Shown: piece by piece, positions 26,890 through 30,466 of the stretch
Layout of the letters: each line of letters begins with the position of its first letter
How positions within the stretch are numbered: the first letter of the stretch is position 1
Origin: Escherichia coli
Lineage (GTDB): Bacteria > Pseudomonadota > Gammaproteobacteria > Enterobacterales > Enterobacteriaceae
Length of the DNA: 64,000 nucleotides
Assembly (NCBI RefSeq): GCF_003334335.1
Contig: NZ_QOWQ01000003.1
Strand: one strand, 5' to 3'
Program-made: the position numbers and the translations under genes
Notes under the pieces: model-generated
The model's database searches: none
The model's input: the letters and a program-made list of their open reading frames with translations, nothing else
Told to the model about the DNA's origin: nothing

Positions 26890-26930
26890 CCCCGGCGACT
26901 AAACGCCGCCGGGGATTTATTTTATTTCTT
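26890..26930 (+). terminator. Intrinsic terminator downstream of fadK (between convergent fadK and ppsA)
   Basis: Hairpin CCCCGGCG...GCCGCCGGGG followed by ATTTATTTTATTTC on the plus strand. Confidence 0.6.
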
Positions 26931-29300
26931 CAGTTCAGCCAGGCTTAACCAGGTTTGCACCACGGTGTCCGGGTTCAGAGACAGGCTATCGATCCCCTCT
27001 TCCATCAACCATGCGGCAAAGTCTTCGTGGTCGGACGGACCCTGACCGCAAATCCCGACATATTTGCCCTGTTTCTTCGCGGCACGGATAGCCATCGACA
27101 GCAGTGCTTTCACCGCATCGTTGCGCTCATCGAACAATTCAGACACCACGCCGGAGTCACGGTCCAGACCGAGCGCCAGCTGCGTCATATCGTTTGAGCC
27201 AATTGAGAAGCCGTCGAAATATTCGAGGAACTGCTCGGCCAGCAAGGCGTTGGACGGGATTTCACACATCATGATGATTTTCAGCCCGTTCTCGCCACGT
27301 TTCAGCCCCTGACGCGCCAGTTCTTCAACCACCGCTTTCGCCTGATCTACGGTACGCACGAACGGGATCATGATCTCAACGTTGGTCAGTCCCATGTCGT
27401 TGCGCACACGTTTCACTGCTTCACACTCCAGCGCGAAACAGTCGCGGAAGCTGTCGGAAACATAGCGGCCCGCGCCACGGAAGCCGAGCATCGGGTTCTC
27501 TTCATCTGGCTCGTAACGCTCACCACCGACCAGGTTGGCATATTCGTTCGATTTAAAATCAGAGAGACGGACAATGACGCGCTTCGGATAAAACGCGGCA
27601 CCCAGCGTCGCGATCCCTTCAGTCAGACGACCAACGTAAAATTCACGCGGAGAATCAAAACCTTTCATCATCTCGCGGATTTCGTTTTGCAACTGCGGTT
27701 CCTGATCGTCAAACTCAAGCAGTGCGCGTGGGTGGACGCCAATCATACGGTTGATGATAAATTCCAGACGCGCAAGGCCCACGCCTTCGTTCGGTAGGCA
27801 GGCGAAGTCGAAAGCACGGTCCGGGTTACCGACGTTCATCATCACTTTCAACGGCAGATCCGGCATCGTTTCTACGCTGGAGCTTTTCACGCTAAATTCC
27901 AGCAACTCCGCATAGACGTAACCGGTATCACCTTCGGCACAAGAAACAGTGACGTTCTCACCGTCTTTCATCCGTTCTGTTGCATCTCCACAGCCCACTA
28001 CCGCCGGAATGCCCAGTTCACGAGCGATGATCGCCGCGTGACAGGTACGACCGCCACGGTTGGTGACGATGGCAGATGCTTTCTTCATGATCGGTTCCCA
28101 GTCCGGGTCGGTCATGTCAGTAACCAGCACGTCGCCAGGTTCGATGCGGTTCATTTCGCTGATGTCATGGATGACTTTCACCGGACCCGCACCGATGCGA
28201 TGACCGATAGCACGGCCTTCGGCGATAATCTTACCCTGTGAATGCAGCGTATAACGCTCCATGACCTGACCGCGTGAGCGCACGGTTTCCGGACGCGCCT
28301 GCACAATGAACAGTTTACCGGTGTGGCCATCTTTCGCCCACTCAATATCCATCGGGCGACCGTAGTGTTTCTCAATTTGTACGGCCTGTTTTGCCAGTTC
28401 CTGCACTTCTTCGTTGGTCAGCGAGAAGATGTCACGCTGTTCCTGCGGTACGTCTTCGATTTTAACCTGCTTGCCGTGCTCCTGGGTCGGCGCGTAAACC
28501 ATGCGGATTTTTTTCGACCCCATGGTGCGGCGCACGATAGCCGGGCGATTCGCCGCCAGTGTCGGTTTATGCACGTAAAACTCATCCGGGTTAACCGCAC
28601 CCTGCACGACCATCTCACCAAGGCCCCATGCGGAAGTGATAAACACCACCTGGTCAAAGCCGGATTCGGTATCAATGGAGAACATCACGCCAGATGATGC
28701 GAGGTCAGAGCGCACCATCCGTTGAACACCGGCGGAGAGCGCCACACCACGGTGATCGTAACCCTGGTGCACACGATAAGAGATGGCGCGATCGTTAAAC
28801 AGAGAAGCAAATACATGTTTCACTGCCACGAGAACGGCGTCAAAACCCTGAACGTTGAGGAAGGTTTCCTGCTGACCGGCAAAAGAAGCGTCCGGCATAT
28901 CTTCTGCGGTGGCGGAGGAGCGCACCGCAAAAGAGGCGTTTTCGTCATCGGCGGAAAGCTGTGCATAGGCTTCGCGGATGGCGTTTTCCAGCTCAGGCTG
29001 GAAGGGAGTGTCGATAATCCACTGGCGGATTTGCGCGCCCGCTTTCGCAAGCTGAGTAACATCGTCAATATCCGTTTTATCCAGCAGTTCATAAATGCGC
29101 TGGTTTACGCCGCTTTGGTCCAGAAACTGGTTAAACGCGTCGGCGGTTGTGGCGAAACCATTCGGAACGGAAACACCCATTCCGGAAAGATTAGTAATCA
29201 TTTCACCCAGGGAGGCATTTTTGCCCCCAACCCTGTCTACATCATTCATGCCGAGTTGGTTATACCAAAGCACCAGCGGTGACGAGCCATTGTTGGACAT
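26922..29300 (-). CDS. ppsA: Phosphoenolpyruvate synthase
   Basis: 792-aa ORF; PEP-utilising enzyme family. Confidence 0.97.
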
Positions 29301-29386
29301 CGAACAATCCTTTTGTGATAAATGAACGGTTTGAGAAACACATTTCTGCGCATTTATCTTTGCATATTTAACCGGATGAAAAAAAC

Positions 29387-29402
29387 GGTGAATCGTTCAA
29401 GC
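29387..29402. promoter_or_regulatory. Putative Cra (FruR) operator in the ppsA promoter
   Basis: GGTGAATCGTTCAAGC in the ppsA-ppsR divergent spacer resembles the Cra consensus GCTGAAAC/GTTTCAGC; ppsA is a known Cra-activated gene. Confidence 0.45.
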
Positions 29403-29632
29403 AAATATATTTTTTTACTTTTTAAGACTGATCCCAGCGTTGCGCAAATCTGCTCTCTTCGACAATTTCCACATAAACCATCGGTATAAACGAAACCATA
29501 AAAATGAAATGCTGTTTTCATAAAAAATAAAATTGAAGGTTCATTTTATAAACCAGACATAACGTTCTACGCTTCTGTGCGTTTTTAATTTATGCTTTCA
29601 TAGAATTATGTCTGCATCACGGGAAGAACAAA

Positions 29633-30466
29633 ATGGATAATGCTGTTGATCGCCACGTTTTTTATATTTCTGATGGTACGGCAATAACTGCGGAGGTATT
29701 AGGACACGCAGTAATGTCACAATTTCCCGTCACTATCAGCAGCATCACGCTGCCGTTTGTCGAAAATGAGAGCCGTGCACGGGCAGTGAAGGATCAGATT
29801 GACGCAATTTATCACCAGACAGGCGTGCGCCCGCTGGTCTTCTACTCCATCGTGTTGCCGGAGATTCGCGCCATCATCTTGCAAAGTGAAGGCTTTTGCC
29901 AGGATATCGTTCAGGCGCTGGTTGCCCCGCTACAACAAGAGATGAAACTGGATCCAACGCCGATTGCTCATCGTACCCATGGCCTTAACCCTAATAATCT
30001 CAATAAATATGATGCGCGCATTGCGGCGATTGATTACACCCTCGCCCACGATGACGGCATTTCGTTGCGCAATCTGGACCAGGCTCAGGTGATCCTGCTC
30101 GGTGTTTCTCGCTGTGGTAAAACCCCCACCAGTCTGTATCTGGCAATGCAGTTTGGTATCCGCGCGGCAAACTACCCCTTTATTGCCGACGATATGGATA
30201 ATCTGGTGCTACCCGCGTCGCTCAAACCGCTTCAGCATAAATTGTTCGGCCTGACTATCGACCCGGAACGTCTGGCGGCGATTCGCGAGGAACGTCGGGA
30301 GAACAGTCGCTATGCCTCGCTTCGTCAGTGCAGGATGGAAGTCGCGGAAGTGGAAGCCTTGTACCGTAAAAATCAGATCCCGTGGATTAACAGTACCAAT
30401 TATTCGGTAGAAGAGATTGCCACCAAGATCCTCGATATCATGGGCCTTAGTCGCCGAATGTACTAG
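29633..30466 (+). CDS. ppsR: PEP synthase regulatory protein (bifunctional kinase/pyrophosphorylase)
   Basis: 277-aa ORF with P-loop GVSRCGKT; divergent from ppsA. Confidence 0.93.

Follow-up and report, generated by a model that had tools for sequence, protein, structure and literature searches.

Transcription of the divergent genes ppsA and ppsR in Escherichia coli raises the question of whether both are governed by one operator in the spacer that they share, or whether each has a control region of its own. A sequence-only reading of the locus had described it as a compact gluconeogenic switch, with a Cra-like site in a 332-nt AT-rich spacer from which both genes are transcribed. We analysed a window of 64,000 nucleotides from contig NZ_QOWQ01000003.1 (assembly GCF_003334335.1); "window" refers here to that whole stretch, and a window coordinate equals the NC_000913.2 coordinate minus 1,755,836. 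The two coding sequences are as follows.

26922-29300, minus strand: ppsA, phosphoenolpyruvate synthase, 792 amino acids (open reading frame, NCBIfam NF005057 and RefSeq)
29633-30466, plus strand: ppsR (formerly ydiA), PEP synthase regulatory kinase/pyrophosphorylase, 277 amino acids (open reading frame, NCBIfam NF049928 and RefSeq)

Both proteins belong to the families named, with scores above the curated cut-offs (PpsA, 1317 bits against 598 for NF005057; PpsR, 431 bits against 350 for NF049928), and the RefSeq annotation of MG1655 agrees for both genes. Beyond ppsA comes fadK, and ppsR is followed by aroH. The spacer, at 29301-29632, is indeed 332 nt long and AT-rich, with a GC content of 33% versus 49% for the whole window, and the two genes diverge from it as had been described. 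No hit came from an Rfam scan of 29200-29750 (E<=1), and the spacer contains nothing that resembles a terminator. The 1.2-kb stretch around the operator discussed below matches E. coli K-12 MG1655 at 100% identity and was found in 5424 of 5426 complete E. coli genomes.

A scan for PpsR with one genome per species provided 80 Enterobacteriaceae loci, and the spacers of 76 of them, the window itself counted, were aligned; all 76 comparison genomes come from a single family, which limits the depth of the conservation reported here. In this alignment, the most conserved block of the spacer is AAAAAC-GGTGAATCG..AAGCA, and the 16 nt at 29381-29396 reach an identity of 0.975, compared with a spacer mean of 0.63 and with 0.875 in the adjacent ppsA coding sequence. 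Two features fall in this part of the spacer.

29380-29386, no strand assigned: A-tract, AAAAAAC on the plus strand, between the Cra box and the -35 position of ppsA, nearly invariant in the 76-genome alignment
29387-29402, no strand assigned: Cra (FruR) operator, left half GGTGAATC and right half GTTCAAGC, with its dyad between 29394 and 29395

The operator was present in all 76 Enterobacteriaceae, in five close variants that are set apart chiefly by the weak right half (GTTCAAGC, GTGTAAGC or GAGTAAGC), while its TGAATCG and AAGCA were invariant (76/76). Within the species, 5359 of 5364 matched E. coli genomes share the same 40 nt around the operator, and the surrounding 1.2 kb showed some difference in more than half of E. 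coli genomes. The distance from the operator dyad to the TG of the ppsA -10 element was 31 bp in 67 genomes and 32 bp in the other 9, unlike the length of the spacer, which varies widely across the 76 genomes. For Kosakonia, Phytobacter and a few relatives, the distance to the ATG and the spacer length are overstated by 37 nt, the start having been matched at TTGGTCAT within the coding sequence; the operator-to-TG spacing is unaffected. Insertions of about 120 and 240 bp were seen in the spacers of two genomes, those of Buttiauxella sp. B2 and Intestinirhabdus alba: one interrupts the leader of ppsA, the other separates the Cra box from the KdgR-like block described below, and neither comes between the operator and the -10 element. 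Both insertions are GC-rich and palindromic, carry the motif CCCCAGGAGCTTAC...AGTAAGT...CCGGGG and look like ERIC/IRU-type repeats.

The 16-mer GGTGAATCGTTCAAGC has a single occurrence, at 29387-29402 on the plus strand, precisely the position and content given in the sequence-only reading. It fits the published 14-bp Cra consensus RSTGAAWCSNTHHW, quoted in IUPAC form in PMC5829826, at 14 of 14 positions, and the ChIP-exo/RegPrecise palindrome gcTGAAtCGaTTCAgc at 12 of 16. In form it is a Cra operator, imperfectly palindromic over 14-16 bp, strong in its left half and with CG at the centre. The ppsA site is the one match to RSTGAAWCSNTHHW seen in the 64-kb window, where 0.66 would be expected by chance. 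For an independent score, a Cra matrix was obtained by palindrome-constrained EM, run from every possible seed, on the upstream regions of 12 promoters from which ppsA was left out. These promoters, all of which we take to be Cra targets, were those of pykF, fruB, aceB, icd, pck, fbp, epd, pfkA, ptsH, edd, adhE and mtlA. The best-scoring seeds at convergence all led to GCTGAATCGATTCAGC, which is the ChIP-exo/RegPrecise motif. By this ppsA-independent matrix, the 16-mer scored 13.2 bits and ranked second among 63,985 window positions; the next-best score inside the spacer was 4.9 bits, so that matrix scoring, which had been proposed as a check of the site, places it at the top of the spacer.

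As a bare motif, the site does not exceed chance expectation. Chance alone would supply about 0.96 scores per 64 kb equal to or better than that of the ppsA site, and the probability of such a site in a 332-nt spacer of the same composition is about 0.003. The 16-mer GTTGAATCCATACAGC at 45877-45892, inside the arpB pseudogene, scored 14.35 bits with the Cra matrix, above the ppsA operator, and is probably a chance match. A search with the palindromic consensus allowing up to three mismatches found only this arpB 16-mer and missed the ppsA site, which has four. The two halves of the ppsA operator are unequal, the left one (TGAATC) being perfect and the right one degenerate, and a site of this kind is under-scored by a symmetric matrix. 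Given about one expected match per 64 kb and the arpB decoy, motif statistics alone are insufficient for a Cra call, which is decided instead by the position relative to the transcription start, by phylogenetic footprinting and by the literature.

The position relative to the start follows from two features on the ppsA side of the spacer.

29301-29349, minus strand: 5' untranslated leader of ppsA, 49 nt, with a ribosome-binding site; transcription starts at 29349 (G on the minus strand)
29356-29364, minus strand: putative extended -10 core promoter of ppsA, with TG at 29364-29363, then C, then the hexamer AAAGAT at 29361-29356

The start comes from the supplement of Kim et al. 2012 (PMC3415461), where it is mapped to 1785185 on the minus strand with 420 reads and an untranslated region of 49 nt; this corresponds to window position 29349, and the +1 base is invariant in the 76 genomes. 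The hexamer AAAGAT ends 7 nt before the mapped start, and none of the 76 Enterobacteriaceae departs from the TG, the A at -11 (29360) or the T at -7 (29356). At the -35 position (29384-29379) stands TTTTTT, a poor -35, as expected of an activator-dependent promoter. The -10 and -35 elements are predicted here from the sequence together with the mapped start. Given its extended -10 and poor -35, this promoter was missed by a simple sigma-70 scan. The plus-strand proposals of that scan, at 29331-29360 and 29504-29533, fit no mapped start and were set aside.

Measured from the mapped start, the operator dyad lies at exactly -45.5, a position suited to activation. PMC7897506 places the FruR operator of ppsA at -45.5, with class I activation via the alpha-CTD (citing Negre 1998), and cites Ramseier 1993 and Negre 1998 for the binding of Cra to this operator in vitro and its release by fructose-1-phosphate. 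Comparison with the footprinted site, also proposed as a check, thus ends in coincidence of the two positions. A reporter of the ppsA promoter was 16-fold higher on acetate than on glucose, in a study that includes a cra deletion and in which a copy with a scrambled Cra site is the Cra-independent control (PMC5555440). The ppsA Cra operator has also been reused in synthetic sensors of glycolytic flux (PMC9948231). A full-text literature search with the exact 16-mer, its reverse complement and shorter cores did not find the ppsA site. The exact consensus match, the top score in the spacer, the conservation, the fixed spacing and the -45.5 position all bear out the Cra-like assignment, and 29387-29402 is almost certainly the Cra (FruR) operator already described for ppsA in E. 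coli. Its equation with the footprinted site rests on the coincidence at -45.5 and on the published site. Between the window site and the operator of Ramseier 1993 and Negre 1998, which share genome, gene, sequence, the -45.5 dyad and the Cra consensus, no difference was found, and we regard them as the same object and not as mere relatives. The operator was already known, and nothing about it is new here.

The site differs in several respects from the operators through which Cra represses. Those of fruB, pykF, pfkA and epd have the 16-bp palindromic core GCTGAATCGATTCAGC in common with the ppsA site, but repressing operators mostly score higher (about 15-20 bits, compared with 13.2 at ppsA), although that of ptsH is similar at 13.4. 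Repressing Cra operators overlap the promoter or lie downstream of it. At ppsA, by comparison, the two halves of the site are less alike, and Cra activates from a position upstream of a promoter that lacks a -35.

A simple scheme would account for the arrangement at ppsA. When glycolytic flux is low, Cra, a regulator of the LacI/GalR family, would be free of its effector fructose-1-phosphate and would bind the asymmetric palindrome centred at -45.5. Bound there, it would help RNA polymerase to use an extended -10 promoter that has essentially no -35, and the resulting rise in ppsA transcription would direct pyruvate to PEP for gluconeogenesis. With abundant sugars, the effector would release Cra, and ppsA would fall to its basal level. 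In this scheme, Cra binding, the alpha-CTD mechanism of activation and the response to the effector are taken from the literature, while the gene identities, the motif match, the family-wide conservation, the fixed operator-to-promoter spacing and the agreement with the mapped start come from the present analysis.

Other conserved sequences accompany the ppsA promoter. The A-tract at 29380-29386 may be bendable DNA or a contact for the alpha-CTD. Just upstream of the Cra box, a T-rich block, TTTTTTACTTTTTAAGA at 29411-29428 (identity 0.74), occupies about -62 to -79 relative to the ppsA start and may be an UP-like or bending element. In the leader, positions 29301-29325 are 88% conserved in the 76 genomes, and conservation is strong around the ribosome-binding site, ACAAAAGGAUUGUUCG-AUG. 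The leader also has an ACA...GGA arrangement that could be a target of CsrA or of a small RNA, and a review lists ArcZ as a positive regulator of ppsA, acting directly or indirectly (PMC11331407).

Inside the ppsA coding sequence, there is a further candidate site.

29254-29270, no strand assigned: PdhR-box candidate AGTTGGTTATACCAAAG, within ppsA codons 11-16

This sequence is a near-perfect palindrome of the PdhR type. A genomic-SELEX study of PdhR lists a box for ppsA/ppsR that matches 11 of 14 positions at old coordinate 1785098, that is, window position 29262, and reports that ppsA mRNA is more than 2-fold down in a pdhR mutant (PMC7660256). The candidate is invariant in the 76-genome alignment; as it lies in conserved coding sequence, this invariance is inseparable from coding constraint and proves nothing about PdhR.

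On the other side of the spacer, ppsR has a promoter of its own.

29591-29608, plus strand: putative ppsR promoter, with -10 element TATGCT at 29591-29596 and transcription starts at 29603 and 29608

The starts are those mapped to 1785439 and 1785444 on the plus strand in the supplement of PMC3415461, with untranslated regions of 30 and 25 nt. They are weak, with 8 and 7 reads compared with 420 for ppsA. TATGCT is a predicted -10, read from the sequence; it lies in the block 29584-29600, with 94% conservation, and its -11 A (29592) does not vary. No good -35 was recognised in the sequence of this promoter.

Between the Cra operator and the ppsR promoter, the alignment revealed a second conserved module, at 29500-29548, which sits 60-100 bp upstream of the ppsR start and consists of AAAAATGAAA-N6-TTTCAT, an A-rich stretch and then (G)TTTCATTTT. 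It contains two elements.

29502-29522, no strand assigned: KdgR-like palindrome AAATGAAATGCTGTTTTCATA, centred at -91 from the ppsR start and at -163 from the ppsA start
29539-29548, no strand assigned: second conserved element TTCATTTT(A), with family consensus GTTTCATTTT, a block of the 76-genome alignment

In nearly all 76 genomes, the TGAA and TTCA half-sites of the palindrome are conserved and the sequence between them varies at a fixed length, as is characteristic of a site bound by protein. A clean left half is missing from two Pluralibacter, from the Cedecea davisae/neteri group and from Enterobacter sp. Bisph1. Compared with the KdgR consensus AAATGAAACAnTGTTTCATTT (PMC5559549), 29502-29522 matches at 14 of 20 positions, with the conserved TTCA displaced one base outward. 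A KdgR matrix was made from five E. coli sites located with this consensus, two at kduI and one each at kdgT, yjgK/tabA and kdgK. With it, 29502-29522 scored 17.8 bits, the top of the window (next, 11.1) and a score expected 0.03 times per 64 kb; the training sites themselves score 26-32 bits. Its right half is much like that of the kdgK site of E. coli. In E. coli, the element at 29539-29548 is a weak match to the matrix. A version of the matrix with one extra central base performed worse (8.5 bits, with 3.2 matches expected), and the standard KdgR register was therefore kept.

KdgR is said, in work by Rodionov and colleagues from 2004, to regulate ppsA and the adjacent ydiA positively in Dickeya. 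The two genes are also cited as KdgR-regulated in Dickeya dadantii in PMC6127512. Our literature search found no report of KdgR regulation of ppsA/ppsR in E. coli, where transcriptional control of ppsR appears to have been uncharacterised so far. From its sequence, 29502-29522 is a probable KdgR box in E. coli. With operators of the pectin/KDG regulon, including the ppsA-ydiA site predicted by Rodionov and colleagues in 2004, it has the AAATGAAA...TTT(T)CAT half-sites in common; it is unlike them in matching the consensus at only 14 of 20 positions and in its outward-shifted TTCA. A palindrome about 91 bp upstream of the ppsR start suits an activator, and its location some 90 bp upstream of that start, and not over the promoter, fits the positive, non-repressive effect that has been reported. 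We tentatively propose that the palindrome and TTCATTTT, about 60-90 bp upstream of the ppsR promoter, may form a separate activator module, bound by KdgR or by another regulator that recognises TGAA-N8-TTCA, which would drive ppsR and perhaps ppsA.

It is also possible, short of probable, that 29502-29522 is not a KdgR site and belongs to another operator, for example one for CRP, or to an upstream part of the ppsR promoter. Across the family, the half-sites follow TGAA-N8-TTCA, a spacing one base too wide for the KdgR consensus, from which the invariant T29518 and the conserved C29519 also depart, whereas the matrix in its standard register gives the best score of the window and the extra-base form falls to 8.5 bits. 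The half-sites TGAAA-N6-TTTCA have CRP-like spacing. The key bases recognised by CRP are the G and the C of TGTGA/TCACA. As a CRP site, the palindrome at 29505-29520 was rejected, its sequence offering no match to this critical G and C; genomic SELEX of CRP does list ppsA as a new target (PMC3105977). In favour of a promoter element, a consensus promoter scan puts a -35/-10 pair at 29504-29533, but the table of PMC3415461 contains no mapped start downstream of 29533 to go with it. The likeness of the right half to the kdgK site and the link made in PMC6127512 between KdgR and both ppsA and ydiA likewise speak for KdgR.

That a single Cra operator works in both directions, on transcription of ppsA and of ppsR alike, seems to us improbable. 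The arrangement invites such a reading, since both genes diverge from one spacer, SELEX-type studies usually credit a peak in a divergent spacer to both neighbours, joint control would make sense for two functionally linked proteins, PpsA and PpsR, and the co-regulation of ppsA and ydiA by KdgR reported in Dickeya is a precedent. Nevertheless, the transcription starts of the two genes are 254 bp apart, and the Cra dyad lies at -208.5 from the ppsR start at 29603, beyond the usual range of direct activation or repression; lying so far upstream of a weak start, the operator would serve ppsA. About 70 poorly conserved bases (identity 0.455) follow the Cra block before conservation resumes with the separate module, and the reads at the ppsR starts (8 and 7) are few compared with the 420 at ppsA. 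The literature search found no report of Cra control of ppsR, and ppsR/ydiA is absent from the main text of the Cra ChIP-exo/RNA-seq paper. The evidence supports Cra control of ppsA only, and we infer that Cra does not act on ppsR. Of the compact gluconeogenic switch, Cra control of ppsA therefore stands, while a single operator for both genes does not, given the -208.5 distance, a -10 of ppsR's own and the separate palindrome. The locus is better described as a pair of distinct promoters, with an interaction between the encoded proteins, than as one shared operator: ppsR would be read from its own weak promoter, and PpsR would then control PpsA at the protein level. The two genes are thus connected after translation, through the action of PpsR on the PpsA protein.

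It is barely credible that the 16-mer is a chance match without a regulatory role, its conservation being due to promoter architecture or to another protein: about one match is expected per 64 kb and an equally good one lies in arpB, but against this stand the probability of about 0.003 for this spacer, a block more conserved than coding sequence with TGAATCG and AAGCA invariant in 76 genomes, the fixed spacing to the -10, the exact coincidence with the published operator at -45.5 and the scrambled-site reporters described as Cra-independent (PMC5555440).

The Cra site of ppsA is a textbook case of activation by a LacI-family regulator, and as a discovery it matters little; its usefulness lies in calibration, as a true operator that was recognised from the sequence alone. 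If the separate activator module upstream of ppsR is real, it would tie the on/off protein switch of PpsA to the catabolism of sugar acids (KDG), independently of Cra.
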